Shown piece after piece: positions 43,371-61,393 of a stretch of 64,000 nt of DNA. The stretch's first letter is position 1. Each line of letters begins with the position of its first letter. The translations under genes were made by a program, and so were the position numbers. The stretch spans positions 624-64,623 of the forward strand of contig CAZGRP010000023.1 in the NCBI GenBank assembly GCA_964527995.1, read 5' to 3'. The notes under the pieces are model-generated. The model did not search any database, was not told where the DNA came from, and saw nothing but the letters and a program-made list of their open reading frames with translations. The DNA comes from an uncultured Cytophagia bacterium. Its GTDB lineage: Bacteria; Zhuqueibacterota; Zhuqueibacteria; Oceanimicrobiales; CAZGRP01.

Positions 43371-43407
43371 GCCGATGGAAGCTGCACGAAACAAAAAGTG
43401 CAGTCGC

Positions 43408-44835: not shown

Positions 44836-44958
44836 AGCCGCCGCAGCGCGGGGCGGGAGAGAGGTGGTGCCGGTCGTGGGTTGCACTACAGGAGGCGGTT
44901 TCTGCGCGCCGAGCGCCATGTCGCAGGATCACATCCAATCCTTACGCGGGATTGTCTC

Positions 44959-45834: not shown

Positions 45835-45858
45835 GACTCTCCCGCTGGTTGCGGGCCG

Positions 45859-46350
45859 TCAAGGGGCGGGCTTGGCCAGCGTGCGGATGAAAGCCACCAG
45901 GTCGTCGATATCACGCTGTTTCAGTGTATGGCCGTAGGCTGGCATCAGGATGGACTTGTTGACGCCCCGGCCTCCCTGTGCGATTACCTCATGTAGAGTC
46001 TGGTCGGAGATGGCGTTCATGTACTCGGTATCTGTCATGTCGTGGGGCCGCGGGTCCAGATTGTAGGAGTTGAAGCCGTCTCCCTGACCGCCGCTGCCGT
46101 GGCATACGGAACAATAGGTCTCGAACAGACGCATTCCCCGGCGCTCCGCATAGGTGTATTTCACGTAGGGATCCTGCTGTGCGACGGTGTCTTGTTGTGC
46201 CTGCGAGGTCATTGCCGATAGCGCCTGCTTGGGTGCCTCAGGCGACTTGCCGCACGAAAAGAGCGTTAGGACGAATAGCAAAGGGAAAATCAGATAGATG
46301 GCCATGCTGTTGAACCTCACTAACGATTGCAACTTCTTGACTCCAGGCAT
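45859..46350 (-). CDS. Monoheme cytochrome c lipoprotein (start 46350 or 46305)
   Basis: Lipobox LFSC, CSVCH heme motif and distal Met in SILMPAY. Confidence 0.88.
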   Translation of the reverse strand: MPGVKKLQSLVRFNSMAIYLIFPLLFVLTLFSCGKSPEAPKQALSAMTSQAQQDTVAQQDPYVKYTYAERRGMRLFETYCSVCHGSGGQGDGFNSYNLDPRPHDMTDTEYMNAISDQTLHEVIAQGGRGVNKSILMPAYGHTLKQRDIDDLVAFIRTLAKPAP

Positions 46351-46436
46351 GATTGCAACTGTGCGTATCTCTCCACCGTGCCGTGAATGTAGCGAGGGCC
46401 GGGGAAGGTGGACTCTGGTTCGCTGTCGCCTCTCCT

Positions 46437-46913
46437 TCAGACGGCCGGCAGGTGAAACTCGATCTCTTTCGCGAGCATGTGCTGCACTTGCATCAGTCGG
46501 GTCCAGATCATTGAAGCCAGGTTGGACATGATCGCGAACCCGAGCTGAGGATCCTGTTCACAGAGCGCCCGGAGTTCTCGCCCGGGAATCTGGAGCAGGG
46601 CGCAATCGGTGGCCGCATAGGCCGACAGCGTCAGCTTGTGGGGTGGCACCAGCGCGGACCATCCTATGAGGTCACCCCGGCCTTTCACTTCCACAAGAAT
46701 TTCCCGCTCGCTCATCATCACCGAGATCGGCTGGCACAGGTTGACGGAACCCGTGCCGACGACATACAGATGTGTGGCATCCTGGCCCTTTTCGAAGATC
46801 CTCTCGTCCTCTTTCACGGTGATGACCTGCGCTAGCGACCAGATGTTGCGTAGAGTTGCGTCTCCCAGCCCTTGGAAGACACTGCAGGCGCCGAGGAGTT
46901 CTTGGTCGAGCAT
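46437..46913 (-). CDS. Stand-alone cyclic-nucleotide-binding domain protein
   Basis: IFEKGQDATHLYVVGTGSV, GDLIGWSAL and SAYAATDC; no HTH. Confidence 0.85.
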   Translation of the reverse strand: MLDQELLGACSVFQGLGDATLRNIWSLAQVITVKEDERIFEKGQDATHLYVVGTGSVNLCQPISVMMSEREILVEVKGRGDLIGWSALVPPHKLTLSAYAATDCALLQIPGRELRALCEQDPQLGFAIMSNLASMIWTRLMQVQHMLAKEIEFHLPAV

Positions 46914-46936
46914 TGTTCTGCTCCTTGTTGAGGGGA

Positions 46937-48910
46937 TCAACCTCCGCCTTTCAGGGTCATCAAATAGGCGGCGACCTTCTTAGCCTCTTCCAACGTCATG
47001 CCTGACTTCGGTTCGATCGTCCCGGGTTTGTACCTTTGAGGATCCAGCAACCAGCGCACGATCCAGCCCGGCTTCAGGCGTTCGCCGCTCCGGTCGAGGA
47101 GCGGGCCGACATATCCGCCTTTCGAGCCGATCTGATGGCAGCTCTGGCAGCCGTACTTCTCCCAGTACAGAACACGGCCCTTCTCGATAGCGTCCGCATC
47201 CCCAAGGGGGATCCCTGGAACGTCGAGGCTGTCGTCCAGCAAGACCGTGTAGAAATAGTTGGCGAGTGTCTTCACTTCGTCCCCGGAGATGAACAAGTTG
47301 GGCATTCTCTCAGCCTGGATCGGCCGAATCGAATACGGTATTCTGAAGTACTCCTCGACCCAGTCACGTTGTAGCTGGCTGCCGACCCGCGTCAGGTCCG
47401 GGGCGATGTTGCCACCGGCTCCGTTGATTGAATGGCAGGCCAGGCAACTGTACTTGCGGAAAACCTGGCCTACGCGGCCCTGCGGTTTGAAGACCGGCTC
47501 GGGCTCACGTGGAACGACGTATTTGGGCGGAAGCTGATCATCCCTCTGAGCGAGCAACGCTGTCGTGATTGCCTGGATTTCGTCCTCAGAAAGATGATAC
47601 TGCGGCATGCGCAGCGTTTCCCGGAAGATCCGCGGAGTTCTCAGCTTTGTGGAAATGAAATCATAGAGCGTGTGTGGAATGCTGCTCTTGCCGAAGTCGA
47701 TCTCATAGATCTTCTTGCTGCCGACTCTAGTCAGCTCTGGTCCCAGGTTCTTCGTAACCTTGGGGTCGTTCAGCTTGTGGCAGCCGGCGCAGTTGTTTTG
47801 GTTGAAAAGAAGCAGGCCCCGCTCGTAGAAATTTGGCACAGGTTGATGCTGCACTGTATCCGGTGGAGCATCCCAGTCGATGAACTCGCTGGTGATGTAG
47901 GCCGTGAGGGCGGCAAGGTCTGTGTCACTAAAGCCGAACTGTGGCATCTCGACCCCTGGCATGAAACGCTTGGGGTTCTTGACGAAGTTGTAGATCCAGG
48001 CCGGACTGGCTTTGGAAGCCACCTTGCCAAGATCCGGCGCCAGGCGGCCACCACGCCCCTCCACGGCGTGGCAACTGATGCAGCGCGCTTCGCGGAACCG
48101 TGTTTTTCCTCGATCGATAAAGTCGGGGTCCTCCGAACGTTGCTTGTAGACCTCCGGCAGGGGATCCAGACGAGCGCCGTTGGGAAACCGCTTGAAGCTC
48201 ATCAAGAAGTCGGCCAGGACGTTGGCCTCCTCGTCGCCGAGATGGAAGGTCGGCATCTTCGTTTTCGGCCGGAATTGGGCGGGGTCTTTGAGCCAACCCA
48301 CCAGCCACGATCGCTTCACTTTGCTGCCGATGCCGTCCAGGTCAGGTGTAAACGATTTTGTGAAGCCGTCGAGGTTGTGGCAGGCGACACAATTGTACTC
48401 CTTGATCAGTTCTCGCCCGCGCGTGAGCACAGGCGCGTCGGGGACTTTCCGTTGCTGGTGGCAGGTTCCGCACGACGACTCCAGAAAGCGTTTCGGCAAG
48501 ATCGGTTCGTCCCAGAACGGTGTCGGTAAGTGGGCGTCGGCAAACTCGGTCGACCGTCCCTGGCCTTGATGGCAGGCGGTGCAGCCAAAGTTCTCGATGT
48601 TGTGATCGACAGTTGGATGAGTGCGAAAGGGCTCTGGGGCGTCGACCAGGCTTTTCTCCCGGAGTCCCAAATGGCAGGTGACACAACGGTCGACGCGATC
48701 CAGGTCCTTGATCCAAATCTGCTTTAGCCCCATTCGAACCGGCTTGATACGTACCGGTTGTTGCTCGACGAATTTATTGTACTCCTTCTGGTACTTGCGC
48801 CACTCGCGGAAGACATCCTTCAAGGGCGAAACCGCCAGTACGAAAAGAAAGAGCAGACTTGTGATCGCATAGATCGTTTTGAGCTTACCAAGTCCAGTCG
48901 AATTTCTCAT
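46937..48910 (-). CDS. Membrane-anchored octaheme cytochrome c
   Basis: N-terminal TM helix and eight CxxCH motifs (CVTCH, CTACH, CGTCH, CVACH, CISCH, CAGCH, CLACH, CQSCH). Confidence 0.92.
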   Translation of the reverse strand: MRNSTGLGKLKTIYAITSLLFLFVLAVSPLKDVFREWRKYQKEYNKFVEQQPVRIKPVRMGLKQIWIKDLDRVDRCVTCHLGLREKSLVDAPEPFRTHPTVDHNIENFGCTACHQGQGRSTEFADAHLPTPFWDEPILPKRFLESSCGTCHQQRKVPDAPVLTRGRELIKEYNCVACHNLDGFTKSFTPDLDGIGSKVKRSWLVGWLKDPAQFRPKTKMPTFHLGDEEANVLADFLMSFKRFPNGARLDPLPEVYKQRSEDPDFIDRGKTRFREARCISCHAVEGRGGRLAPDLGKVASKASPAWIYNFVKNPKRFMPGVEMPQFGFSDTDLAALTAYITSEFIDWDAPPDTVQHQPVPNFYERGLLLFNQNNCAGCHKLNDPKVTKNLGPELTRVGSKKIYEIDFGKSSIPHTLYDFISTKLRTPRIFRETLRMPQYHLSEDEIQAITTALLAQRDDQLPPKYVVPREPEPVFKPQGRVGQVFRKYSCLACHSINGAGGNIAPDLTRVGSQLQRDWVEEYFRIPYSIRPIQAERMPNLFISGDEVKTLANYFYTVLLDDSLDVPGIPLGDADAIEKGRVLYWEKYGCQSCHQIGSKGGYVGPLLDRSGERLKPGWIVRWLLDPQRYKPGTIEPKSGMTLEEAKKVAAYLMTLKGGG

Positions 48911-48916
48911 GATCGC

Positions 48917-49624
48917 TCAGTAGATTCCGGTTTTCCAGGGCCATACCCAGCTCCAGCCGGGTCCACGGAAGAAAGTGCCAATGATGGTCAACACCGCGGC
49001 TACAAACACGAACCACGTCATAATCCACTCTGCCAGAGAGCGTTGTCCCAGCCAGGCGATCCACCCCTTTCCCTCCGGCTTGAAGTATGGGATCAAGGCC
49101 AGGCCGTAGATGAGAAGGGTTGGAATCACGATGCCGAAGGCATCGAAAGCGCCGGTGGCTATCACAAAAAGCAAGACGACCGAGGTCAGGATCACAAACG
49201 TTCTTTGGCGGTCGTGGATCCACAGCCCCTCCCGCTTGATGTTGATCTCAAAGTAGGGAATCACTATGAGGGCTATGACCACCAGGCCCGGCAGGACGAT
49301 GCCGGCAACAAGCGGCGGAAAGGAGTGAAGCAGCTCCTGCAGCCCGAGAAAGTACCATGGCGCTTTGGCTGGATTTGGGGTATGTTGCGGATTGGCAAGC
49401 TCCTCCAGCGGTGCGTTGACGAAGAGCGCCAGCAGCGCCATGACCACCACCACGATCTGAAAACAAATGACCTCTCGAATCACCAGATGGGGGAAGGACA
49501 TCACCAGCTTCTCTGGTGGCTTCTCTTCCTCGAAGCGCGCCGGTACCTTCTTGGGCACCATGGCCAGCCGCTTCGGCACTTCTGCTGGATCCGTGTTGAC
49601 TTCGACTTGATATTTCTGGCTCAT
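48917..49624 (-). CDS. Cytochrome b subunit IV-like (C-terminal half of split cytochrome b)
   Basis: FPHLV.RE, APLEELANPQHTPNPAKAPWYFLGLQELL and IPYF; multiple TM helices. Confidence 0.87.
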   Translation of the reverse strand: MSQKYQVEVNTDPAEVPKRLAMVPKKVPARFEEEKPPEKLVMSFPHLVIREVICFQIVVVVMALLALFVNAPLEELANPQHTPNPAKAPWYFLGLQELLHSFPPLVAGIVLPGLVVIALIVIPYFEINIKREGLWIHDRQRTFVILTSVVLLFVIATGAFDAFGIVIPTLLIYGLALIPYFKPEGKGWIAWLGQRSLAEWIMTWFVFVAAVLTIIGTFFRGPGWSWVWPWKTGIY

Positions 49625-49720
49625 CGTTTTGGTTCCTGTGTCAGTCGAACCGAGTTCCCGGTGACTCTTTCCTTGTTGATCCCTTGACTCAGATAACCCG
49701 GAAGGCCGGTTTCGAAGTTC

Positions 49721-50431
49721 CTACCGCAACCCGCCGTCCTTCCGGATTCGCCAGAAGTGGATTCCGATGAACAGCGAAAGAAGACCTGGGAGGATCACCG
49801 AGTGTAGGACGTAGAACCGCACCAGGGCGTTCTCGCCGATCAGGTGGCCGCCCAGCAACAGATACCGTAGCTTCTTGCCGATGAATGGCACGTAGGCCGC
49901 GATGTTCGTCCCCACCGTGACCGCCCAGTAGGCAAGCTGGTCATAGGGGAGCAGATAACCCGTGTAGCTAAGCAGTAGCGTGAGGAGAAAAAGGACGACG
50001 CCGATCACCCAGTTGAACTCCCGCGGCGGGCGGTAGGCGCCTGCATAGAACACCCGCAGCATGTGGAGAAAAACGACCAGGACCATGGCGTGGGCCGCCC
50101 AGCGATGCATGTTGCGGAGAAAGAGGCCGGAGGAGACCACGTACTGTAGGTCCTTCATGTCGTTGTACGCTTCGGGGATCGCCGGGTGGTAGTAGAGCAT
50201 CAGCAGAATGCCGCTGACCGTGAGGATCACGAAGAGAAAAAAGCTGGTCATGCCGAGGTAGAGCGTGTAGCTGAAGCGAATGGCCTTCAACCGCACCTTC
50301 ACTGGCTGAATGTGCAGAAACAGGCTGTTGAAGATGACCAGGGAGCGGTCGAGATTGGTGCGAATTGGCAGGCCGGTGCGGAAGATCGACCGCCACGCTC
50401 TTGACTGGGTTAGACGCTGCCACAGGGTCAT
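49721..50431 (-). CDS. qcrB: Cytochrome b6-like N-terminal subunit of a Rieske/cyt b complex
   Basis: [45 protein letters not shown] and [10 protein letters not shown] (four heme-ligating His). Confidence 0.93.
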
Positions 50432-50672
50432 TGCAGTCCTCGGTTGTTGTAAAGCATATTCGAGCCTCCGCGAACAAGAGGCGAAGAATTCACCACAAAC
50501 AGGTAAGGGCTAGCACGGATCCTCTTCCTGGCTCATGCTGCTTTCCGCCATGGGTTGTTCCGTGTAGATCGAGGGGCGAAGTCGTTTTGGCGTTCGTTTT
50601 GGGGCTGTCCCAAAGGAACCGCATTCTCTCCTTTTCGGACAGCCTCGTTGGGAGCCACGTGGTCCGCCGATA

Positions 50673-51191
50673 TCAGACCCTCAGGATCATCTCGTCCTCG
50701 CTGACCGTCTCAGAAGTATCCACGACCAGCTCGCTGTCTTCCACTTTTATGCGAAAGCGATCGAGGTCTCTCGGTGCCGGTCCGCGAATCACCTCACCGG
50801 TCTTGGTAAATCTGCTTCCATGGCAGGGGCAGGCGATGATTCCCTCTGGATGGCCTGGCACGCCGTCAGGCTTCCACTGAGTCGTGCAACCAAGATGAGT
50901 GCAGATGGCGGACACGGCCCATACGTAGCCCTCCTTGGCTCGGAAAACGAAGACACGATACTCCGGGTTGAACACGACGCTGCCCGGTGGAATCTCCTGG
51001 ATGGATCCGGCCCGGAACCGGCTTGGTGGCTCGAGGACGACATTCGGCCAGAGGTACTTCCAGGTGACGATGCTGCCTCCCACCAGAGTGGCGGCAACCG
51101 CTGTGTTGCCTGCTTTGGCGAAGAATTCTCTGCGGCTCAGGGCCTTTCGCTCGTGATGATCTGTTTCTGGCTGCTTTTCCGGTTCCTTCAT
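50673..51191 (-). CDS. qcrA: Rieske [2Fe-2S] protein with Tat anchor
   Basis: SRREFF Tat motif, CTHLGC and CPCHGS. Confidence 0.94.
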   Translation of the reverse strand: MKEPEKQPETDHHERKALSRREFFAKAGNTAVAATLVGGSIVTWKYLWPNVVLEPPSRFRAGSIQEIPPGSVVFNPEYRVFVFRAKEGYVWAVSAICTHLGCTTQWKPDGVPGHPEGIIACPCHGSRFTKTGEVIRGPAPRDLDRFRIKVEDSELVVDTSETVSEDEMILRV

Positions 51192-53035
51192 ACGCGCGTC
51201 TCCGACTGTTCAAATGCTTGCATCGTAATTGTCCCAACAGGGCAGCGCTTGGCGCACAACCCGCAACGGATGCAGATCTCCTCGTCCTTGATCATGACCA
51301 TGCCGCGACCGCTCGCTCGTTCCAGCTCCGCACCGAGGTCGTCCTCAAGGAGCGAGTCGGTGGCCTTGCCCATCACCAGTTCCGAAAGCGGCACGATCTC
51401 GATACAATTCTCTGGGCAGACGTCTGCACAGCCGCCACAAAGGATGCACTCGGTTCCCTTGAGCGGATCGCCTTCGAAGATCGTGTTTACCCAGCAACGA
51501 AGGCAGCGGCTTCCCTCCAGGACCGCCTGCACCTCGTTGTATCCAAGCTCGACCTGGGCGATGCCGACGCGACGTTCCAGCGGCAGAGCAGGGATCGGCT
51601 GACGGCGGATGTGCGTGTACCCTGGGATGGGCTGGTAGTCGGCCGTGTCGTAGAGGGTGATCTTGTACTCAGGTTCGGGGTGTTGTTCACCGCTCAGGTA
51701 ATTGTCGATGGAGCGGGCCGCCCGGCGCCCCTCTGCCACCGCGGTGATGGCAATGCGCGGGCCGAAGGCCAGATCGCCGCCGGCGTAGATCCCGGGGGCC
51801 GTTGTCGCCATCGTTTCCGGATCCACCTTGATCGTGCCTCGCGGTGTCGTCTCGATACCATCCTCCGGGGTGAGCCAGGAGAGGTCAGACGACTGGCCGA
51901 TCGCAATGATCACGGTATCGGCCTCGATCACTTTCTCGGTGCCCGGAATGAACTTGGGATTGAAGCGGCCGTTCTCATCGAAGACCGACGCCACATCGAT
52001 GGTCTCCACACCCACGACGCGGCCGTCCTGCGTGATAATGCGCTTCGGGCCGTGGCGATTATGGATGCTGATCCGCTCTTCCTCGGCTTCCTCGACCTCC
52101 TCAGGATCGGCCAGCATCTCTTCTCTTGCCTCCAGGACGATCATATCGACCTTCTTGGCACCGAAGCGCACCGCCGAGCGGGCCACATCCAGCGCAGCCG
52201 TGATGTCGGAGGTGGTCACCGGCTCTCCGGTCTCAAGGCGTGCTGCAGTTCGTGCCACATCGAAGGCCACGTTGCCGCCGCCGATGACGACGATTTTCTC
52301 GCCCAGCTCCACCTTGTAGCCGAGATTGACGTTCAGCAGGAAGTCGATGGCATTGAGGACGCCGTCGGCGTGGATACCATCGACATTCAGCGTGCGGCTC
52401 TTGTGAGCGCCGATGGCCAAGAAGATGGCCTCATAGCCATTGTCGCGCAGGTCGCTCAGGGTGAAGTCGCGCCCCAGCGCTTTGCCAAGCTTCAGCTCCA
52501 CGCCGAGGCTCAAGATCAGGTTGATCTCGAGCCGGATGAGTTCGCGCGGCAATCGGTACTCGGGGATTCCCAGGCGGAGCATACCCCCGGGCACATCATG
52601 CGCCTCGAACACCGTGACGCCATACCCCAGAAGGGCCAGGTCATGGGCGCACGACAGACCCGCAGGGCCAGCCCCGATGACGGCCACCCATTTGTTTTTG
52701 GGCTGAATCGCCGGCCCCAGGCTTTCGCGCAGCTTTGTCATGTCGAGCATGCTCTCCACCCCATAGCGCTCACAAACAAAGCGCTTGAGGGCGCGGATCG
52801 CGATGGGCTGGTCGAGCTGGCCGCGGCGGCAGGCGTCCTCACACGGCGCTGCACAGATGCGGCCACAGATGGAGGCGAACGGATTCGGAGCTCGAGCCAC
52901 GCGGTAGGCCTCTTCGTAGCGGCCTTGCGCGATCAGATTCACGTAGCGGCCTGCTTCGGTGTGTACCGGGCAGGCCCACATACACGGGAAGTTACGCTCG
53001 AGCCAATCTGGATTGACCAACTTAAAAGAAGACAT
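51188..53035 (-). CDS. Cytoplasmic NAD(P)/FAD-dependent Fe-S oxidoreductase (GltD/NfnB/SudA-like) with C-terminal 2x[4Fe-4S]
   Basis: CMWACP...CGRICAAPCEDAC, IGAGPAG, GGGNVAFD, CILCGGCADVCP and CIRCGLCAKRCP; its stop overlaps the Rieske start (ATGA). Confidence 0.9.
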   Translation of the reverse strand: MSSFKLVNPDWLERNFPCMWACPVHTEAGRYVNLIAQGRYEEAYRVARAPNPFASICGRICAAPCEDACRRGQLDQPIAIRALKRFVCERYGVESMLDMTKLRESLGPAIQPKNKWVAVIGAGPAGLSCAHDLALLGYGVTVFEAHDVPGGMLRLGIPEYRLPRELIRLEINLILSLGVELKLGKALGRDFTLSDLRDNGYEAIFLAIGAHKSRTLNVDGIHADGVLNAIDFLLNVNLGYKVELGEKIVVIGGGNVAFDVARTAARLETGEPVTTSDITAALDVARSAVRFGAKKVDMIVLEAREEMLADPEEVEEAEEERISIHNRHGPKRIITQDGRVVGVETIDVASVFDENGRFNPKFIPGTEKVIEADTVIIAIGQSSDLSWLTPEDGIETTPRGTIKVDPETMATTAPGIYAGGDLAFGPRIAITAVAEGRRAARSIDNYLSGEQHPEPEYKITLYDTADYQPIPGYTHIRRQPIPALPLERRVGIAQVELGYNEVQAVLEGSRCLRCWVNTIFEGDPLKGTECILCGGCADVCPENCIEIVPLSELVMGKATDSLLEDDLGAELERASGRGMVMIKDEEICIRCGLCAKRCPVGTITMQAFEQSETRV

Positions 53036-53093
53036 CGCTGCCTTTCATGTCGAATTTGACAGCCACGCCAGGGGCCGGCTTTTTCTTTCCGTC

Positions 53094-53693
53094 CTATCGT
53101 TTGAGCAGGAAGTTCACCTCCACCTGGCCCTTGGCAGGCACGGTCACCTCCTGCGGCTTCGTTTTCAACTTCTCGTGCCAGACCTTCAAAGTGTACTTGC
53201 CAGCCGGCACGTCCTTGATGACGAACTTGCCCGTCTTGTCGGTCTTGGCGAAGTACGGGTTCTGCAGCACCACCACATAGGCTTCCATTTCCGGGTGGAC
53301 GTTGCAGAGGATCACCGCCACGCAATCGGGGTTCTTGAAGGTGTAAGGACGCTTCTGGCCCTTTGGCCAACTCCCGAGATTGAACTTGCCGGCGCACTTG
53401 TCGGGCGTGAAGACGTTGTGCAAAACGTCGTCACTGTTCTGGAATTCGACGGTCGTCCCGGCAAGAATAGGGAGCACATGCGGGACGAACGCCATATTCT
53501 TCTGGTCCATGAGCGCCTTCTCTTTGGGCGCCGGAAACGTCTTCCCAGGGATCTTTTCGATATAGACCACAGCGTCGGCGGCGCTACGAGCGCCTTTGAC
53601 AGTGATTGTACCGACGATATCGCCTGCCATGGCCGTCTGCCAGAAAGCACCCAGCAGAAGTGCGGCCGTGAAAGCGCTGATGATTTTCTTCAT
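53094..53693 (-). CDS. Periplasmic cupredoxin-like / carboxypeptidase-regulatory-like domain protein with type-1 Cu ligand set
   Basis: GGAGG RBS, signal peptide (AMA-G), DQKNMAFVPHV, LHNVF and CNVHPEM. Confidence 0.8.
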   Translation of the reverse strand: MKKIISAFTAALLLGAFWQTAMAGDIVGTITVKGARSAADAVVYIEKIPGKTFPAPKEKALMDQKNMAFVPHVLPILAGTTVEFQNSDDVLHNVFTPDKCAGKFNLGSWPKGQKRPYTFKNPDCVAVILCNVHPEMEAYVVVLQNPYFAKTDKTGKFVIKDVPAGKYTLKVWHEKLKTKPQEVTVPAKGQVEVNFLLKR

Positions 53694-53722
53694 TACGATA
53701 CCTCCTCAGTCAACACCTTGGG

Positions 53723-55006
53723 TTAGAATCCTACAACGAGAGCTAGCTCAATCTCCCCGAATTCGAATTCTCCTTCGCCTTCTGCTGCCTCCTTTTCGAT
53801 TTCGGCTGACAGCACTGCCTTGAGGTTGGCCCTGATGAGGGCGGTCAGGCCGGGTACGAAGCGCTGGTCTGTCTCCGCGGCGCCTCCAATGCTGGAACGG
53901 AAACGCTCATAGCGAAGATTCGGCAACAGCCAGGGGTAGAGCACATAGGTTCCCTCAACCATGATATGGGTGCCGGTGCCGTCCCCACTCTGACTGATGA
54001 GCGGCCGGTCGTCATGTTGTACTGCCACAAGGCCGGAGAAGTTGAAGCGCTCGTAGTAGGCGTCGATGCTGCCGCCGAACTGGTTAAAGTTGTCTTTGAC
54101 TCCTTCGCCTAGCGTGGCGCGGCCGTTGTAGAAGAAGGCATCGAGGCGGACAGAGTTGTCTTGCCAAGGTTGCGAGGCTCCGGCAGTGGCTTCTACGATC
54201 TTACCATCGAGGCGGAGCCCACCGAACTTGTAACCGGCATGGAGGTAGAAATCCTTGTCGCCGTTGGGAACGTTCTGCCGACCTTCTACGAGACCCACCG
54301 AATAGATGAAGCGCGCGTCGCCAAGCAAACCCCTTACCTCGAACCCCTTCTGGGGGCGATCGAAGTTCCAGTTGTTGTTGCCGAACGGTTTGCTGGCATA
54401 CCAGTAGCGCGAGGTCAGCCGGCGCATGTTGCTGAAGGGCGTCACGAAGGGTATGATCTTTCCAACTTTCAGGCTGAGGGCGTTGTCGGGCAGGATATTG
54501 TCGAAGCCGATGTGGGCCATCTCCAGCTCGACTTCCCCGCCTTCGATGGCGACCTCGCTGAAGAAGGAGATGTTGTCGGTGAAATTGCCGCCGGATATCA
54601 CCCCGACTTCGCTGGGCATGTTATCGAAGACGAGTTTCGGCTCGCCCTCGGGCGCATTCGGCCTGTAAGGCACTTCGGACTCCACGACCACCGCAAGGGG
54701 TACGCTGCTGGGCAGGGCGTTGGGCCAGATGGCATCGGGCCAGACCCGTTTGTATGCCTCCGAACCCATTTTCACCGGCTTCTCCTGCGCCTTCTCGGCA
54801 TCTGCCTCTGCGCCTCCGGGGAACTGGTAGCCGTTCATCTGAAAAGCGCGCCCGAAAGCGTTCAGCTTCGGAAAGGCGGCGTGACAGGTTGCACAGCTCG
54901 TTTTGTACTTGCGGGCCCAGGCCGGAATTGCGCTGGCATCGCTGGTGCTCCAGATGAGCCCGACCGCAATACCCACAAGGACGATGACCGTCTTCTTGGA
55001 TCCCAT
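53723..55006 (-). CDS. Cyc2-like fused monoheme cytochrome c-porin
   Basis: Signal peptide, then AIPAWARKYKTS-CATCH-AAFPKLNAFGRAFQMNGY matching the Cyc2 N-terminal signature; about 380-aa amphipathic beta-barrel region; C-terminal Phe. Confidence 0.8.
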   Translation of the reverse strand: MGSKKTVIVLVGIAVGLIWSTSDASAIPAWARKYKTSCATCHAAFPKLNAFGRAFQMNGYQFPGGAEADAEKAQEKPVKMGSEAYKRVWPDAIWPNALPSSVPLAVVVESEVPYRPNAPEGEPKLVFDNMPSEVGVISGGNFTDNISFFSEVAIEGGEVELEMAHIGFDNILPDNALSLKVGKIIPFVTPFSNMRRLTSRYWYASKPFGNNNWNFDRPQKGFEVRGLLGDARFIYSVGLVEGRQNVPNGDKDFYLHAGYKFGGLRLDGKIVEATAGASQPWQDNSVRLDAFFYNGRATLGEGVKDNFNQFGGSIDAYYERFNFSGLVAVQHDDRPLISQSGDGTGTHIMVEGTYVLYPWLLPNLRYERFRSSIGGAAETDQRFVPGLTALIRANLKAVLSAEIEKEAAEGEGEFEFGEIELALVVGF

Positions 55007-55081
55007 GGTCTTTCCTCCTCTTCGATATCGGTTTCTGCCTCAGTACCGGGCCCCCGTTCCTTTCGACCTTCATGGGCTCGT

Positions 55082-55098
55082 ATACAAAACAGGTGCCA
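55082..55098 (-). promoter_or_regulatory. Putative sigma-54 (-24/-12) promoter of the cytochrome-porin operon
   Basis: Minus strand TGGCAC-CTGTT-TTGTA (GG-N10-GT; one mismatch at the -12 GC), 76 bp upstream of ATG 55006. Confidence 0.5.
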
Positions 55099-55197
55099 CT
55101 CCCGGGCAGGTTGACGCTACGTGGATGTAACACACTGTTTCCATGATTGTTAGCCTGGTTTATATTCCGCGGGTCGAGTCCCCTGCTCAACGAAAAG

Positions 55198-55446: not shown

Positions 55447-56850
55447 CTATCCTTTGCGGAAATCTTGCGATCGGATGCCGTGCTTTTTCATCAGCCTCTG
55501 GAAGCTTTGGCGCTCGATGCCTGCGGCCTGTGCCGCGGCGGTGACGTTGCCACGTGTGGCTTTCAGGCGCTCGATGACAAACTTGCGCTCGAAAGCATCC
55601 ACGACGACCCGGCGGGCGTCTGCAAGCTTCTCGTGGACGATAGGGATGTCGATGGTTTGCCGGGCCTGTTTGCGGAACAGGTGCGGTGGGAATGAATCGG
55701 CGGTCAGTACGTCGCTCTTCTCCAAGACTACGGCGCGCTCGATGAGATTCTCCAACTCGCGCACGTTCCCTGGATAGCGATAGCTGGAGAGGGCCTCCAT
55801 CACCTCGGGGCTGATGCTGTGAATGCCCTTGCCGAAGCGCTGCCGGTACTTTGACAGGAAGTAGTTGGCCAGCACCGGGATGTCGCCGACCCTCTGGCGC
55901 AGCGGTGGCAGTTTGATGGCGATGACATTGAGGCGAAAATAAAGATCCTCGCGGAAGTTACCGCGCTTGATCTCGTATTCGAGATCGCGATTGGTTGCCG
56001 AAATGAACCGTGCCCGCACCGGGATGGTTTGGTTGCCGCCGACACGCTGGTAGCAGCGTTCTTCGACCACCCGCAACAGCTTTTGTTGCAACTTGGGGGG
56101 CATGTCGCCGATCTCGTCGAGGAAAAGTGTTCCCTCGCCGGCGAGCTCGAACTTTCCCTCTTTGCGCGCATCAGCTCCGGTGAATGCTCCCTTCTCGTGG
56201 CCGAAGAGCTCGCTTTCAAGCAGCGTCTCGGGCAGCACGGTGCAGTTGATGGCAACGAACGGTTCGTCGTGGTGCTGGCCGCTGTTGTGGATGGCGCGGG
56301 CGACGAGTTCCTTCCCGGTGCCGCTCTCCCCAAAGATGATGACGTTGGTCGAATTGGGCGTTGTGGTCACCGCACCAATCGTTTTGTAGACCTCCTGCAT
56401 GGACGGATCGCTGCCGATGAGCTCGTATTCGACGATCGGGTGGCTCAGCTTCGCTCGCAGGTCGCTCACTTCCCGCCGCAACCGCACCGTTTCCAGCGCG
56501 CGTTCGGTGAGAGCACGCACCTTGTCGACATGCAGCGGCTTGGTCAGGTATTCGTAGGCGCCGAGCTGTACGGCGCGGATCGCCGTTTGCATGGTGCCGT
56601 AGCCAGTGATCACGATCACCGGCAGGTTCAGTCCGTCACTCTTGATCTTCTCGAGCACAGCGAGTCCATCCATTTCCGGCATGGCCACATCCAAAAAGAG
56701 GAGCGCGGGTTTCTCTATTCGGAGCTTCTCGAGTGCCTGCGGACCGCTGTCAGCAGAAATCACCCTGTAGCCGCTCCGCTCGAGAACCTTTCGAAAGGCG
56801 AAAACGATGCTTTCGTCGTCGTCGGCGACCATGATCTTTTCTTTGGGCAT
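55447..56850 (-). CDS. Sigma-54-dependent response regulator (NtrC/AtoC family)
   Basis: Receiver domain (VADDD, LDVAMP, KP), GESGTGKE, GAFTGA, FLDEIGD and a Fis-type HTH. Confidence 0.96.
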   Translation of the reverse strand: MPKEKIMVADDDESIVFAFRKVLERSGYRVISADSGPQALEKLRIEKPALLFLDVAMPEMDGLAVLEKIKSDGLNLPVIVITGYGTMQTAIRAVQLGAYEYLTKPLHVDKVRALTERALETVRLRREVSDLRAKLSHPIVEYELIGSDPSMQEVYKTIGAVTTTPNSTNVIIFGESGTGKELVARAIHNSGQHHDEPFVAINCTVLPETLLESELFGHEKGAFTGADARKEGKFELAGEGTLFLDEIGDMPPKLQQKLLRVVEERCYQRVGGNQTIPVRARFISATNRDLEYEIKRGNFREDLYFRLNVIAIKLPPLRQRVGDIPVLANYFLSKYRQRFGKGIHSISPEVMEALSSYRYPGNVRELENLIERAVVLEKSDVLTADSFPPHLFRKQARQTIDIPIVHEKLADARRVVVDAFERKFVIERLKATRGNVTAAAQAAGIERQSFQRLMKKHGIRSQDFRKG

Positions 56851-56857
56851 TCGCTTC

Positions 56858-59311
56858 TCAGCTCCGATCGCTTGTTCCCGCACGCGAATCATACAAAGGC
56901 AAGAGTAGCGTAAATGTGCTGCCTTTCCCGACTCGACTCTTTACTCTGACGACACCGCCATGCTCATTGACAACCCGCTTGACAAAGGAGAGTCCAAGTC
57001 CGGTGCCGTTCGTCTTGGTTGTGAAGAATGGATCGAAGATGCGAGCCATGTGCTCCTCCGGAATGCCACAACCTGTGTCTGCGACCTCGACTCTCAGCAC
57101 GCGCGTGCCTTTCTTGAGGATGATCTCCTGAACCGCGACTCCTTCGGTGTCGGCCGCCATGCCGACTTCGCCGAGGTGGCGGAGCTGTTTCGTGAGTGTA
57201 TGCAGGCTCGAGCGCACGACGATCTTGCCTCTTTCGCGGATGGCCTGAGAAGCATTCAACAGCAGATTGAAGACCGCCTCTTTCATGTGGTCGCGGTCGA
57301 GCGGGATCAGCGGCACGTGCTCATCGAACTGCATTTCCAGCTCGATGCCGCTGCGAGCCACCTGATGCCGGGCGAACTCGACTGAATCGGTGAGGATGTC
57401 GTTGATGTTCGCCGGCTTCTTGTCGAGTGGCGCCGGCCGGGCCAGTTGCAGCAAATCGTCGACGACACGTTCCATGCGGTCGATCGAATCGAGGGCCACG
57501 CCGAGCGACTCGCGGTCCGATGGCTCCAGGCCTTCCGTCTCCGCCAGCAGTTGCAGAATCATCTGCACGGATGTGAGCGAGTTTCTCATCTCGTGGGCGA
57601 TGACGGCGGCGATCTCCCCGGTTGCAGCCAGTCGCTCGGAGCGGATGAGCTGGTCCTGAAGGCGCTTGCGCTCGGTGACGTCGGTTATGATCTCCAGGAC
57701 AGTGCTCACGCGGCCATCCGTCTTCAGCGGAACCGCCACATGCTCCAGGTAGCGCTCCTCTCCTTCGGCTCCGATACGTCGGACCAGTTGCGTCTCCATC
57801 CTGCCCGACTCGAATACACGGGCCGACGGACAAGAGGCGCAGGTCTCCATGTTGCCCATGACCTCATAGCAGCGGCGGCCGAGCAGGTCCTCGACTGGAG
57901 TGCCGGTAATGGAGCTGAGAGCGGCGCTGGCTGACAGAATTCGATGGTCGCGGTCCAGCAGCAGGAAGCCGCTTGGCACATTGTCGAGGATGACCTGGAG
58001 CTTGTTCTTCTGATCTCTCAGCTCCCGGGTGCGCTCCTGTACCATCTGTTCCAGGCGTTCGCGGTGCTGTGCCAGCTCGGCCTCGCGCTGTTCGAGCGAC
58101 TGTGCCATGAAATTGAACTGGCGGGCGAGTTCCTGAATCTCGTCGTGGGTCCTGATATCGACGCGGGCATGGAAGTCTCCCCTGGCCACTTCCTCGATCT
58201 CGCGCTGCAACTTCTGGATCGGGTCGGTGAACTGCCGGGTGGCGAGATAGGCAAGTGCGAGAGATACAAGCAGAAACAATCCGAGCAGACCCCAGAACAC
58301 CCTCTTGAATTTGGTTACTGGCGCAAAGATCGCTTCCTTGGGCACACTCTTTAGAAGGATGTACTGGCTGCCGGTCGTTCCGGCAGTGGTGAAAAGGGGA
58401 ACATGCGCTATCATCGCCCGGCTGCTTTCCAACAGCAGTGCAGAATTCGGATTCAGGAGCCTGTTGGTCAGCTCCGGGCCAAAATCGTGCTTCAAGTTTT
58501 CCGTAGCCTTGGAGGCGAGAAGGTGGTTCCACTCCTTCTTCTTTTCGGAATGGTAGAGGTAATACCCTTCGGCGTTGACCAGCATCACCGTGCCTGCGGA
58601 GATGTGGGGTGTCTTCTGTTCGATGATCTTGAAGAACCTCTTCGCGTAGATCTGCAGAATCAGGACACCGGAGAATTCCGGATCGTACACCGGGTAGACG
58701 CAACTGATAGCCGGCAGGGAACTGCTCGTCTGCACGTTCCACAATTCGACGGGCACGAAGGTGGCGCGGTTGGGTGGGATTCTTCCCGCAAGATAGAGGT
58801 AGAAGCGAGTTCCGGTGCGGTTCAGCTCGTCCCGAGAAAGAACGTAATATTCCCCGCTCCTCTTCTCAATGTTGAAAACCTCAACGCCGGTGGGATCGAT
58901 GAATTTGATCTGGTACAAGATGCCCTTGCGCCGGGCAAAGGCGCGAAGTTCCTGCAAAAGCTCGAGATCAGCGACCGACCGCGCCGCGGATGGATGTCTT
59001 GCCGTCGTCTGCAGGAAGCGCCGGAAAGATGCAGAGGCGGTGATAAAGTGGCCATTGTCTTCCATTTCCCCGAAGAAGGCTCCCAGGCGTTCTTTGATGG
59101 TGAGGAGGTCGTCGGTCAGATTCTCGACGGCGATTCGGCGCAGGGAGCTCACGTTGTAGGAAATCGCCAAGAGGCCGACGATGAGCACCGGCAGGATCGA
59201 CAGGCCGGCAAAGGCCACGACCAGCTTGCCGCGTATCTTCAGTCTGAGCGGTTTCTGAAGATCCAAACCCATAGCCATCCGGAGTGAGTGCAACCTTTTC
59301 TTTCGCCGCAA
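56858..59311 (-). CDS. Sensor histidine kinase (TM-Cache-like-TM-HAMP-PAS-HisKA-HATPase); start may be 59278/59272
   Basis: Two TM helices around a periplasmic domain, HAMP (DEIQELARQFN), PAS, AHEMRNSL, NLLLNA, DTGCGI and GTGLGL. Confidence 0.93.
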   Translation of the reverse strand: MRRKKRLHSLRMAMGLDLQKPLRLKIRGKLVVAFAGLSILPVLIVGLLAISYNVSSLRRIAVENLTDDLLTIKERLGAFFGEMEDNGHFITASASFRRFLQTTARHPSAARSVADLELLQELRAFARRKGILYQIKFIDPTGVEVFNIEKRSGEYYVLSRDELNRTGTRFYLYLAGRIPPNRATFVPVELWNVQTSSSLPAISCVYPVYDPEFSGVLILQIYAKRFFKIIEQKTPHISAGTVMLVNAEGYYLYHSEKKKEWNHLLASKATENLKHDFGPELTNRLLNPNSALLLESSRAMIAHVPLFTTAGTTGSQYILLKSVPKEAIFAPVTKFKRVFWGLLGLFLLVSLALAYLATRQFTDPIQKLQREIEEVARGDFHARVDIRTHDEIQELARQFNFMAQSLEQREAELAQHRERLEQMVQERTRELRDQKNKLQVILDNVPSGFLLLDRDHRILSASAALSSITGTPVEDLLGRRCYEVMGNMETCASCPSARVFESGRMETQLVRRIGAEGEERYLEHVAVPLKTDGRVSTVLEIITDVTERKRLQDQLIRSERLAATGEIAAVIAHEMRNSLTSVQMILQLLAETEGLEPSDRESLGVALDSIDRMERVVDDLLQLARPAPLDKKPANINDILTDSVEFARHQVARSGIELEMQFDEHVPLIPLDRDHMKEAVFNLLLNASQAIRERGKIVVRSSLHTLTKQLRHLGEVGMAADTEGVAVQEIILKKGTRVLRVEVADTGCGIPEEHMARIFDPFFTTKTNGTGLGLSFVKRVVNEHGGVVRVKSRVGKGSTFTLLLPLYDSRAGTSDRS

Positions 59312-61343: not shown

Positions 61344-61393
61344 CTCTGGGGGTTGTGATCTCTGGATCGTAGTAGGTTTCAACCTTCGCCGAG

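Follow-up and report, generated by a model that had tools for sequence, protein, structure and literature searches.

A conserved string of genes for a Cyc2-family porin, a blue-copper protein and an NAD(P)-linked Rieske/cytochrome b complex looks like an electron route between the cell outside, the quinone pool and NAD(P)

In the uphill pathway of Acidithiobacillus ferrooxidans, electrons pass between outer-membrane Cyc2, the blue-copper protein rusticyanin, CycA1, the reverse-running bc1 complex PetI and complex I. The rus and petI operons are separate, and NAD+ is reduced by complex I at the expense of the proton-motive force. Proposals for Mariprofundus and others pair Cyc2 with alternative complex III (ACIII; ActB/Mob), a quinone-reducing membrane complex. 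Anammox bacteria possess Rieske/cytochrome b complexes (Kuenenia Kuste4569-4574 and Kustd1480-1485; loci L088 of Scalindua and L089 of Brocadia) with a four-helix b6-type cytochrome b, an enlarged subunit IV carrying APWY, a multihaem cytochrome c instead of cytochrome f or c1, and a GltD/NfnB-like flavoprotein. In AF3 models, four clusters of this flavoprotein wire the b haems to FAD; its proposed assembly on the anammox complex is based on co-migration and on these models. The Geobacter sulfurreducens cluster extHIJKLMNOPQS encodes the porin ExtI, multihaem cytochromes, the Rieske protein ExtO, the cytochrome b ExtP, ExtQ and ExtS.

The window analysed here comprises 64,000 nt of contig CAZGRP010000023.1 (assembly GCA_964527995.1) from an uncultured microbial-mat bacterium. 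Nine co-oriented genes occupy positions 45859-55006 of its minus strand (Table 1), and the identities given to them by a sequence-only reading agree with the checked ORF coordinates, the Pfam matches and the motifs. The compartments predicted for the products, with their signal peptide, Tat, transmembrane (TM) and lipobox features, also hold. From the porin gene to the monohaem cytochrome c gene, the intergenic gaps are 29, 58, −4, 241, 96, 6, −4 and 86 nt, and the two 4-nt overlaps are those of the flavoprotein stop with the Rieske start (ATGA) and of the octahaem cytochrome c gene with the gene of the cNMP-binding protein. The search for terminators inside the string found none that was convincing, and no credible ORF was seen in the 241 nt that separate the Rieske gene from that of cytochrome b. 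A second contig from another run of the same study spans positions 45800-55113 with only 18 base differences from the window, so that the gene string is not an assembly chimera. No sequence from this stretch was found in three small metatranscriptomes of the study.

Table 1. Features of the nine-gene string and of its upstream region (positions in the window; minus, minus strand)
Feature	Position	Strand	Size	Evidence
Monohaem class-I cytochrome c	45859..46350	minus		Pfam; one CxxCH; last gene in relatives too
cNMP-binding-domain-only protein	46437..46940	minus	167 aa	Pfam cNMP_binding, E 1.7e-14
Octahaem cytochrome c, membrane-anchored	46937..48910	minus	657 aa	Pfam, 8 CxxCH, hydropathy
Enlarged subunit IV-like protein	48917..49624	minus	235 aa	Pfam Cytochrom_B_C, hydropathy
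Cytochrome b6-type four-helix cytochrome b	49721..50431	minus	236 aa	Pfam, NCBIfam, b6 alignment
Membrane-anchored Tat Rieske [2Fe-2S] protein	50673..51191	minus	172 aa	Pfam Rieske, motifs
NfnB/GltD-like NAD(P)H:FAD iron-sulfur flavoprotein	51188..53035	minus	615 aa	Pfam, NCBIfam, homology
Periplasmic type-1 copper protein (cupredoxin)	53094..53693	minus	199 aa	Pfam, ligand alignment, AF2, Foldseek
Cyc2-family fused monohaem cytochrome-porin	53723..55006	minus	427 aa	CxxCH count, consensus, AF2, Foldseek, hhalign
Sigma-54-like −24/−12 element, TGGCAC-N5-TTGT (candidate)	55084..55098	minus		By eye and regular expression
NtrC-type response regulator	55447..56892	minus		Receiver; Sigma54_activat, E 1.7e-68; HTH_8
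Sensor histidine kinase	56858..59311	minus		Pfam: dCache-like periplasmic, HAMP, PAS, HisKA, HATPase_c

The porin had no match in Pfam. Its signal peptide ends with ASA before an isoleucine and is followed by AIPAWARKY-KTS-CATCH-AAF-PKL, with the only CxxCH (CATCH) at residue 38, and the barrel of the AF2 model has 16 strands and terminates with VVGF. The family consensus AIPAFARKYKTSCATCHxAFPKL agrees with the published Cyc2 signature, in which the window protein carries W in place of F. With hhalign, probabilities of 98.5% to the Cyc2 of Gallionellaceae and Zetaproteobacteria and of 97.4% to that of Acidithiobacillus were obtained, and the Cyc2 proteins of Gallionella, Sideroxydans, Zetaproteobacteria and Acidithiobacillus are significantly similar to the window porin in sequence and profile; Foldseek matched 16-strand porins, including OprP and OprO. 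The initial assignment as a Cyc2-like porin was thus borne out. Like A. ferrooxidans Cyc2, Leptospirillum Cyt572, Mariprofundus Cyc2 PV-1, Ghiorsea Cyc2 and 'Ca. Mariimomonas' Cyc2, the protein has a signal peptide, a single N-terminal CxxCH, the signature motif, PxL and a porin with 16 strands and a length of about 430 aa. Unlike these oxidases, it shows the W-for-F exchange, its activity is putative, and its family has a conserved insert of about 40 residues (KRxFPDAIWP...) after the haem domain. A mineral or an electrode, which had been considered as partners, is unlikely, because a published analysis predicts dissolved Fe2+ as the substrate of monohaem Cyc2 proteins.

The cupredoxin consists of a signal peptide, the cupredoxin domain and a C-terminal CarboxypepD_reg-like beta-sandwich. 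Alignment to the cupredoxin domain of NirK confirmed the H/C/H/M ligands as H92, C130, H133 and M136, the first conserved in 113 and the other three in all of 119 sequences. The AF2 model (pLDDT 92.6) resembles amicyanin, plastocyanin and pseudoazurin (Foldseek TM 0.7-0.8), with the first two closest in fold, and the protein is not a relative of rusticyanin. In a second sample of 41 loci, its gene comes after that of the porin in 40, being an obligate neighbour in the window family, whereas a cupredoxin gene was present in just 6 of 120 loci with a canonical "FARQ" Cyc2. The same cupredoxin family occurs in porin-less Rieske/cytochrome b operons with an octahaem cytochrome, including that of Scalindua, where the gene adjoins the Rieske gene; this points to a connector shared by the porin-linked and the porin-less operons.

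Without signal peptide or TM helix, the flavoprotein is predicted to be cytoplasmic. It contains Fer4_20, Pyr_redox_2 and, at the C-terminus, a 2x[4Fe-4S] domain, and the Rossmann motifs GAGPAG and GGGNVA were read by eye in the translation; together with Fer4_20, these motifs form the arrangement for NAD(P)H and FAD of GltD and NfnB, as judged from the sequence. Among solved structures, it is closest to Bfu-type NfnA and NfnB (E 1e-88 to 1e-71). The NCBIfam model PRK12771 scored 469.6 bits at a cutoff of 516, and all other NCBIfam cutoffs were missed as well.

The Rieske protein has the twin-arginine motif SRREFF and the boxes CTHLGC/CPCHGS; its best solved relatives are the Chlorobaculum Rieske protein (1.5e-18) and the Kuenenia structures 9rk3 and 9rk4 (about 3e-17). 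Cytochrome b aligns with the b6 of b6f complexes (E 6e-41, query residue 59 to b6 residue 36), binds its haems by H109/H123 and H210/H225, and has Tyr58 where b6 carries the cysteine for haem cN. Subunit IV has five to six hydrophobic segments by hydropathy and the Qo motif APWY, which is present in 100 of 100 aligned homologues. This motif is strictly conserved, as are the Rieske boxes and each of the four histidines of the b haems, which indicates that quinone chemistry has been retained. One N-terminal TM helix of the octahaem cytochrome c is followed by four closely spaced CxxCH and then by four class-I domains; a search of solved structures found only a NorC-like domain related to it. The monohaem cytochrome c, with a lipobox-like LFSC, is probably a lipoprotein.

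The string has in common with the anammox complexes the Rieske protein, the four-helix cytochrome b, the enlarged subunit IV with APWY, a multihaem cytochrome c and the flavoprotein, and the sequence-only reading had seen the anammox design joined to that of A. ferrooxidans. For the flavoprotein this was correct: it shares 37-39% identity over about 618 aa with the Scalindua and Brocadia subunits and 16 of its approximately 17 conserved cluster cysteines. Cytochrome b, in contrast, belongs to a separate clade that comprises the porin-linked, flavoprotein-bearing proteins (SH-aLRT 100), and the haem cN cysteine was found in none of 36 window-type loci but in both anammox loci, indicating that the wiring on the N side may differ. 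Strictly speaking, the complex is therefore no member of the anammox type. The gene order differs too, in that the flavoprotein gene comes first in the gene set of the complex and is translationally coupled to the Rieske gene, an HAO-like partner is missing, and the hosts have no anammoxosome. Also unlike anammox, the window has the Cyc2 porin, the monohaem cytochrome c and a sigma-54 two-component control. The sequence-only reading knew of no outer-membrane cytochrome with the anammox complexes; porin-cytochromes do exist in their genomes, albeit at other places than the Rieske/cytochrome b genes.

The design of the string resembles that of A. ferrooxidans in that Cyc2 in the outer membrane is combined with a blue-copper protein, cytochromes of the c type and a Rieske/cytochrome b complex whose Qo motif has proline at position 2, the A. 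ferrooxidans complex being thought to run in reverse. However, the window has all genes in one string, with an NAD(P) flavoprotein in the Rieske/cytochrome b gene set, and this set with its flavoprotein is used instead of the ACIII of the Mariprofundus proposals. The ext cluster of Geobacter is a partial precedent, because there, too, c-type cytochromes and the core of a Rieske/cytochrome b complex are united with a porin of the outer membrane within a single conserved cluster. The best NCBIfam match of the window cytochrome b is ExtP, near the cutoff (270.6 bits versus 290), subunit IV matches ExtQ and the octahaem cytochrome ExtS weakly, all three scores for the window b-type subunits being below their cutoffs. 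ExtI, however, is a haem-free porin acting with separate multihaem cytochromes, and the cluster has no cupredoxin, flavoprotein or Cyc2. No paper describing the full gene combination was found in the literature, so that the combination is apparently undescribed so far, as had been suggested, although part of it was already joined in the ext cluster.

The string is not a rarity of its source genome. About 45 of 86 related loci, the majority of them from Bacteroidota, Ignavibacteriota and Calditrichota, have the genes in the order porin, cupredoxin, flavoprotein, Rieske, cytochrome b, subunit IV, octahaem and monohaem cytochrome c, as does the cultured Geothrix terrae SG184. Dozens of genomes at species level show this order again with porins of 35-70% identity, which is far beyond chance, and the cassette is widespread, being carried by hundreds of species representatives. 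Most of the hosts are heterotrophs, and they are not known as iron oxidisers. Locus L005 has its porin gene in divergent orientation, and co-transcription in the strict sense is therefore not universal. The constant core of the loci is the porin-cupredoxin pair. Besides the window-type genes, it is found with another Rieske/cytochrome b lineage (L056, L068, L083), with the ActB of ACIII in the order porin, cupredoxin, ActB (L044, L064), and, where cytochrome b is absent, with a fusion of a NapH-like membrane protein and a GltD-like flavoprotein (L086). By this comparison, the pair was combined on independent occasions with four different modules linked to quinone or NAD(P), which argues for a genuine coupling to both pools, and the single cytochrome b clade indicates long co-inheritance.

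The analysis documents the genes with their cofactor motifs, the folds, homologies and predicted compartments of the products, and a synteny that is conserved but modular; from there on, the physical assembly, the electron path, the substrate and the direction are inferred. The string looks like a complete electron route between the cell outside, the quinone pool and NAD(P), and that all these genes form one module with three poles is likely. The near-constant adjacency of the pair and its four module partners strengthen the originally proposed route from Cyc2 via the blue-copper protein to an NAD(P)-linked Rieske/cytochrome b complex. The Cyc2-type porin would exchange electrons with a redox species dissolved outside the cell, for which Fe(II)/Fe(III) is most likely, and the periplasmic blue-copper protein would connect it to the lipoprotein cytochrome c and the eight haems of the anchored cytochrome c. 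The c haems would communicate with the Rieske centre of the b6-type complex, the APWY Qo site of which may react with the menaquinone pool. On the cytoplasmic face, the flavoprotein with its four Fe-S clusters would link NAD(P)(H) to the b haems of the low-potential branch, in line with the proposal for anammox. Given this wiring, the two-electron couple of quinone and quinol would be served at the Qo site by one high-potential electron of the outside branch and one low-potential electron of the NAD(P) branch.

If the genes form one module, the inward direction is slightly better supported than an even chance, and Fe(II) uptake is favoured. Menaquinone would then be reduced by one electron derived from Fe(II) and one from NAD(P)H, and in the presence of a membrane potential Fe(II) electrons could go on to NAD(P)+. 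Blue-copper and class-I c-type carriers typically have a high potential, which supports this direction. An inflow of electrons from the high-potential side has also been proposed for the APWY clade. If true, Fe(II) electrons would enter the quinone pool without a separate route of reverse bc1 and complex I. This module, preferably running inward, is our best explanation, held with a little more confidence than doubt, and the initial interpretation is partly supported.

The same module may instead run outward, which we consider unlikely. Menaquinol would be oxidised and its electrons bifurcated. One electron would travel by way of Rieske centre, c haems, cupredoxin and Cyc2 to an acceptor of high potential outside the cell, for instance, Fe(III) chelates, Mn(III/IV) or humics in oxidised form. 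Its partner would pass from the b haems to the flavoprotein and reduce NAD(P)+ to NAD(P)H, which is the anammox model for flavoprotein-bearing Rieske/cytochrome b complexes. The carriers include Geothrix and Ignavibacteriaceae, known as reducers of Fe(III) or humics that hold Cyc2 homologues, and for these an outward flow fits better. The potential of −130 mV measured for one Cyc2 haem does not fix the direction, and such a haem could donate to Fe(III). Nevertheless, every Cyc2 protein assayed so far oxidises Fe(II), the argued high-potential-side input of the APWY clade speaks against outward flow, and NAD(P)H made from quinol would be of little use to heterotrophs. In addition, NAD+ reduction by menaquinol needs an acceptor above about +170 mV (our own estimate from standard potentials), which excludes the common Fe(III) oxides.

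Neighbouring genes may also serve separate pathways, the Rieske/cytochrome b complex and flavoprotein an internal respiration that supplies periplasmic reductases or oxidases, and the porin-cupredoxin pair the handling of envelope metals, for instance, detoxification of Cu(I), Fe(II) or Mn(II). In agreement with this, the region just upstream in the window and its closest relative encodes a CusA-like pump, a P1B ATPase or CusCBA, and CsoR is nearby in L003, L004, L008 and L009, but such metal-efflux neighbours are present in just a handful of 61 long loci. The pair occurs without Rieske/cytochrome b genes in many loci of Myxococcota, Omnitrophota and Nitrospinota, and the octahaem operons exist without the porin; where the Rieske/cytochrome b genes are missing, however, the pair still precedes ActB or the NapH-like flavoprotein fusion. 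With the cupredoxin family common to both operon types and the single cytochrome b clade, separate pathways are improbable. Very improbable is a flavoprotein that exchanges electrons with ferredoxin, a disulfide or another small substrate, or feeds NAD(P)H electrons outward across the membrane through the b haems as a quinone-free dehydrogenase: the family includes NfnB, SudA, dihydropyrimidine dehydrogenase and Bfu-type subunits, the window protein is below every NCBIfam cutoff and the L086 relative does without cytochrome b, but the GltD/NfnB arrangement argues for NAD(P)H, and the conserved Qo site, Rieske boxes and b-haem ligands argue against the quinone-free variant.

For the preferred three-pole module, the dCache/PAS histidine kinase and the sigma-54 activator upstream would turn the genes on. 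The genes of response regulator and kinase overlap by 35 nt, and most related loci have both upstream of the porin gene, with 50-67% identity for the regulator and 37-58% for the kinase. The sigma-54-like element is located 92 nt upstream of the porin ATG, and TGGCAC-N5-TTG[AT] also precedes the porin gene in L007, L014 and L015, with a weaker TGGTAC in L001. The GC of the −12 part is replaced by GT or GA, so these sites are candidates only. At the other end of the string, the cNMP-binding protein is an accessory, non-conserved member, being present among the related loci in only L049, L053, L054 and L058 at varying positions. A convergent HDOD gene lies beyond the monohaem cytochrome c gene, the last of the string.

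The cassette is real, conserved and widespread, and it is built from components of known kinds. The sequence-only reading had described a string of co-oriented genes, and this was confirmed: nine open reading frames (ORFs) are arranged in tandem on the minus strand, from position 55006 down to position 45859, with intergenic distances of 29, 58, −4, 241, 96, 6, −4, and 86 nt. The products were assigned on the basis of Pfam, NCBIfam and motif counts, and are listed in the table together with the features upstream of the porin gene. A second-run contig of the same microbial-mat study, which had been assembled independently, spans the region between positions 45800 and 55113 with 18 base differences. 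The RNA runs of this study comprise 8 to 18 Mb only and contained nothing from the window stretch.

Genes of the cassette and features upstream of the porin gene (positions in the window).
Feature	Position	Strand	Description
Porin	53723-55006	-	427 aa; no Pfam match; signal peptide; one CATCH at residue 38; C terminus VVGF
Cupredoxin	53094-53693	-	199 aa, exported; weak plastocyanin-type match; C-terminal CarboxypepD_reg sandwich
Flavoprotein		-	615 aa, cytoplasmic, GltD/NfnB-like; Fer4_20, two Rossmann folds, C-terminal two-cluster ferredoxin domain
Rieske protein		-	twin-arginine motif SRREFF
Cytochrome b6	49721-50431	-	236 aa
Subunit IV-like protein		-	235 aa; APWY
Octahaem cytochrome c		-	657 aa; eight CxxCH; one N-terminal TM helix
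cNMP-binding-domain protein	46437-46940	-	167 aa
Monohaem cytochrome c		-	163 aa; lipobox-like LFSC
Histidine kinase		-	dCache/HAMP/PAS; upstream of the porin gene, same strand
NtrC-type sigma-54 activator		-	upstream of the porin gene, same strand
Candidate sigma-54 element	92 nt before porin ATG		TGGCAC-N5-TTGT

The porin is a member of the Cyc2 family. According to Keffer et al. (2021, PMC8406198), whose criteria were used, a Cyc2 protein has an N-terminal signal peptide, a single CxxCH that is preceded by the signature AxPxFAR[Q/K][T/Y] and followed at a distance of four residues by PxL, a 16-strand porin barrel similar to OprO/OprP, and a length of at least 365 aa. The hydrophobic N terminus of the window porin ends, as read from the sequence, with ASA before IP, and the sole CxxCH follows. 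Its motif AIPAWARKY matches eight of the nine signature positions, with W instead of F, and the published strict filter PxFAR[QK][TY] (PMC8406198) would exclude the window porin itself. The W variant is common to the relatives of the porin at 67 to 77% identity; the exact AIPAFARKY is found in relatives with at most 63% identity and in the family consensus AIPAFARKYKTSCATCHxAFPKL, which was derived from an alignment of 26 sequences. The PxL is present in the form CATCH-AAF-PKL, and the length of the porin is above the limit.

Structure prediction with AF2 yielded a 16-strand barrel comprising residues 104 to 426, with pLDDT values in the barrel mostly between 75 and 94; the haem domain had a low confidence, as expected because the haem is absent from the model. 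A Foldseek search with this model found 16-strand porins at E values of 1e-11 to 1e-8, among them OprP (2o4v) and OprO (4rjw), which are the structural relatives published for Cyc2 (PMC8406198). Reference Cyc2 genes from Sideroxydans, Gallionella, Zetaproteobacteria, and Acidithiobacillus were obtained by a degenerate DNA pattern scan. In BLASTP, the window porin matched the products from Sideroxydans (8e-11), Gallionella (7e-10), a Zetaproteobacteria MAG (5e-9), and Acidithiobacillus (5e-8), and alignment of the porin family profile with hhalign gave probabilities of 98.5% for the Cyc2 of Gallionellaceae and Zetaproteobacteria and 97.4% for that of Acidithiobacillus. This likeness is limited to the first 130 to 150 residues, and conservation within the Cyc2 family has been published as N-terminal only (PMC8406198). 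Following the haem domain, at residues 62 to 100 approximately, the porin family contains a conserved insert about 40 residues long (KRxFPDAIWP..., with invariant G81, K86, P90, A92, W94, P95, and P99) that is absent from the aligned set of Gallionellaceae and Zetaproteobacteria Cyc2 proteins and could serve the cupredoxin as a docking or plug element. FeGenie-based papers report mostly cluster 3 Cyc2 proteins in communities rich in Ignavibacteriales, which is a lead only.

The second product had been read as a cupredoxin with H/C/H/M ligands, and a predicted type-1 copper site and the corresponding fold were indeed found, with the ligands aligning with those in the cupredoxin domain of NirK. 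Residue H92 is kept in 113 of 119 homologues, and C130, H133, and M136, which form a C-x2-H-x2-M loop, are kept in all 119. The AF2 model (pLDDT of 92.6) retrieved amicyanin, plastocyanin, and pseudoazurin in Foldseek; the score for Pfam Copper-bind was 20.0, slightly below the cutoff of 21.2. Judged by sequence and model, the protein is a predicted type-1 (blue) copper protein. A second pair of cysteines occurs in about half of the family (C100 in 58 and C124 in 55 of 119 sequences), mainly in porin-linked sequences in an alignment of 24 sequences, and probably forms a disulfide.

A pattern scan of species-representative genomes yielded 292 loci that encode relatives of the porin. The first sample comprised 86 loci, of which 80 are among these 292 and six came from preceding searches. 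Where the contig permits, the porin gene is nearly always followed by that for the cupredoxin, and a synteny check bore out the association with the inner-membrane genes: about 45 of the 86 loci go on with genes for the flavoprotein, the Rieske protein, cytochrome b, subunit IV, and the octahaem and monohaem cytochromes. Most of these full loci come from Bacteroidota, Ignavibacteriota, and Calditrichota; one Acidobacteriota MAG and one MAG with the label Alphaproteobacteria are also among the hosts. In a second sample of higher GC content, the cupredoxin gene was present in 40 and the flavoprotein gene in 21 of 41 loci. This sample included the cultured Geothrix terrae SG184, which encodes in order a porin, a cupredoxin, a flavoprotein, a Rieske protein, and a cytochrome b with 34, 57, 61, 44, and 62% identity, respectively. 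Canonical "FARQ" Cyc2 loci contain a cupredoxin gene nearby in only 6 of 120 cases. At three loci (L056, L068, and L083) the porin-cupredoxin pair is combined with a different lineage of Rieske/cytochrome b complexes, which is devoid of the flavoprotein, and the cupredoxin family is also present in many octahaem Rieske/cytochrome b operons without a porin gene. The strongest argument from the in-silico data for a joint function of the outer- and inner-membrane parts is that the pair has been combined repeatedly with membrane modules linked to quinones or NAD(P).

Other neighbors of the pair were observed as well. In a proteobacterial MAG (L044:16313-19117) and an Acidobacteriota MAG (L064:12290-15373), it is followed by a gene for an ActB-like subunit of alternative complex III (ACIII); these ActB-like proteins have molybdopterin and 4Fe-4S sites, and a Tat signal was read in the one from the proteobacterial MAG only. 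An Omnitrophica locus (L086:11437-15356) encodes the porin and the cupredoxin, then another small protein resembling cupredoxins, and next a 943-aa protein in which a NapH-like membrane domain, which has CxxCP motifs, is fused to a GltD-like flavoprotein and to five further TM helices.

For the inner-membrane part, an anammox-type design had been claimed, which held for the set of Rieske protein, b6-type cytochrome, and subunit IV, for the multihaem cytochrome, and for the flavoprotein, but neither for the cysteine of haem cN nor for the grouping of the cytochrome b. For this comparison, 80 Rieske loci were fetched with a fragment of the Kuenenia Rieske protein as query. The order of the genes in Scalindua and Brocadia is Rieske, cytochrome b, flavoprotein, subunit IV, and multihaem cytochrome. 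As in the window, anammox complexes combine a Rieske protein with a four-helix, b6-like cytochrome b and a subunit IV-like protein, and a hexa- or octahaem cytochrome c replaces cytochrome f or c1; the window octahaem protein shares 26% identity with the multihaem subunit of Brocadia. The flavoprotein is 37 to 39% identical to those of Scalindua and Brocadia over about 618 aa and has 16 of the 17 cluster cysteines in common with them. In anammox bacteria, this protein is the putative NAD(P) oxidoreductase of the complexes, and in AF3 models four Fe-S clusters lie between its FAD and the b haems; its proposed binding to the membrane complex in Kuenenia rests on co-migration and AF3 models. A Scalindua locus (L088:7389-8096) encodes a homologue of the cupredoxin/CarboxypepD_reg protein with 45% identity directly upstream of the Rieske gene of its flavoprotein-bearing operon, and this homologue is unmentioned in the literature examined on anammox complexes.

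The nearest relatives of the window cytochrome b are the b6 proteins of b6f complexes (E value of 6e-41), and the four b-haem histidines are invariant in the alignment. Its Tyr58 aligns with Cys35 of b6, the cysteine of haem cN. This cysteine occurs in none of the 36 sequences of the window clade but in both anammox sequences and in 47 of 63 other octahaem-type complexes. In a quick maximum-likelihood tree built from 104 sequences of cytochrome b, a single clade with an SH-aLRT value of 100 unites the 36 porin-linked sequences from flavoprotein-bearing loci, and within it the window sequence is sister to that of a Calditrichota MAG; the anammox cytochromes are on the other side of the tree, together with types from Nitrospina, Binatia, and Acidobacteriota. 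The APWY motif of the Qo site was found in 100 of 100 subunit IV homologues, including those of the anammox loci, and the Rieske protein had equal scores to the Chlorobaculum Rieske protein and to two Kuenenia Rieske structures. Comparison of the octahaem subunit with solved structures gave nothing useful. Beyond the four canonical ligands, the histidines H40 and H114 are shared by every one of the 104 APWY-type cytochromes b in the alignment and might be the ligands of an extra b haem, which is predicted at the dimer center in AF3 models of the Kuenenia complex. The residue following the haem ligand H210 is a serine (S211) in the window protein; of the 104 cytochromes b in the alignment, which include the window protein, 100 have a cysteine there.

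The other known system to be considered is the ext cluster of Geobacter sulfurreducens (extHIJKLMNOPQS), which already combines a porin and multihaem cytochromes with a Rieske/cytochrome b core. ExtP was the top NCBIfam match of the window cytochrome b, with a score of 270.6 below the cutoff of 290, and ExtQ scored 67.9 with subunit IV, below its cutoff of 150. ExtS scored 108 with the octahaem protein at a cutoff of 100, yet was outscored by SoxX-type repeats. No counterparts of ExtH, ExtI, ExtJ, ExtK, or ExtL were found in the window string.

The best reading of the gene string would be a three-pole coupler. The porin is predicted in the outer membrane; the cupredoxin, the monohaem lipoprotein, and the octahaem domain in the periplasm; the Rieske protein, b6, and subunit IV in the inner membrane; and the flavoprotein in the cytoplasm. 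A Qo site would link two branches to the menaquinone couple: a high-potential branch via the Rieske protein, c haems, copper, and Cyc2 to the outside, and a low-potential branch via b haems, Fe-S clusters, and FAD to NAD(P). A more far-reaching proposal, which is tentative and may well be wrong, is that the cassette represents a self-contained three-way redox coupler, meaning a quinone-based bifurcating or confurcating Rieske/cytochrome b enzyme outside of anammox bacteria with a high-potential pole hard-wired to Cyc2 in the outer membrane by way of a dedicated blue-copper protein, and serving ordinary heterotrophs. If so, electrons from Fe(II) would enter the menaquinone pool with consumption of NAD(P)H, or quinol would yield NAD(P)H with an extracellular oxidant, and the route via a reverse bc1 complex and complex I would be unneeded in either direction. 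The hosts would be heterotrophs of sediments, soils, and mats from the Ignavibacteriota, Bacteroidota, Calditrichota, and Acidobacteriota, including Geothrix.

With respect to the direction of the electrons, which we infer only, there are points in favor of either way. Blue-copper and class-I c carriers usually have a high potential, which favors uptake from Fe(II). This direction is also favored by the observation that all assayed Cyc2 proteins oxidize Fe(II) and by the argument of Kao and Hunte (2014), who defined the APWY clade and argued for input from the high-potential side. Outward flow is favored by the anammox model, which proposes quinol-based electron bifurcation, by the reported reduction of Fe(III) or humics in Geothrix and Ignavibacteriaceae lineages among the carriers, and by one Cyc2 haem measured at −130 mV. 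The standard potentials are −320 mV for NAD(P)H, 0 to +200 mV for an Fe(II)-level electron, and −74 mV for menaquinone. By our estimate, the average of an electron from NAD(P)H and one at the Fe(II) level is close to menaquinone, so the coupled reaction would be near equilibrium and plausibly reversible.

That no system with this full composition had been described agreed with the literature: the combination was not found in full texts outside of subscription journals, and an operon of this kind is also missing from the latest review of iron oxidation at the protein level (November 2026). Parts of the design have precedents in the anammox complexes, the rus plus petI route of A. ferrooxidans, the Geobacter ext cluster, and proposals that combine Cyc2 with ACIII. 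To our knowledge, anammox bacteria are not genetically manipulable; the same kind of complex in cultured Geothrix would provide a tractable host in which the redox partner, Cyc2 plus the cupredoxin, is visible. Cyc2 genes serve as a marker for iron oxidation in metagenomes. Many of them are present in heterotrophs that do not oxidize iron, for which we know of no onward route from the outer membrane, and the cassette is a candidate for this route. It may alter the reading of "cluster 3-like" Cyc2 proteins in Ignavibacteriales, Bacteroidota, and Acidobacteriota with regard to the cycling of iron, humic substances, and carbon.

The sigma-54 element upstream of the porin gene may be the promoter of the string, a candidate by its sequence. 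A search for the strict pattern TGGCAY-N5-TTGC in 85 loci gave zero matches, and a looser pattern matched in 7 of these loci. Inspection by eye found TGGCAC-N5-TTG[AT] only in the window and four close relatives, with the weaker form TGGTAC in the closest relative, L001. Many relatives contain an extra gene for a receiver-domain protein between the activator and porin genes, which indicates that the promoter is located elsewhere in these cases. The 241 nt that separate the Rieske gene from the cytochrome b gene (50432-50672) were examined for a small gene and contained no credible ORF. This gap is nearly nil in L001 and other closer relatives, and contains a 118-aa ORF without a Pfam match in many relatives (e.g., L003:14589-14945). 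The gene for the cNMP-binding protein, which has this domain only, overlaps the octahaem gene by 4 nt, indicating translational coupling; it is missing in most relatives, and four loci (L049, L053, L054, and L058) carry one elsewhere in the operon. The protein may be an extra component with a regulatory role.

Immediately upstream of the kinase gene, a P1B-type ATPase is encoded at 59388-61427 and a CusA-like RND pump at about 61936-63999, and L001 has CusCBA in the matching place. Neighbors such as CusA, P1B-type ATPases, and CsoR may suggest a general role in copper or metal resistance, which was rejected because they occur in only few of the 61 long loci. At its other end, the string terminates at a convergent HDOD gene. 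There, at positions 42378 to 45834 on the plus strand and convergent with the end of the operon, a histidine kinase is encoded between two HDOD/HD-domain proteins.
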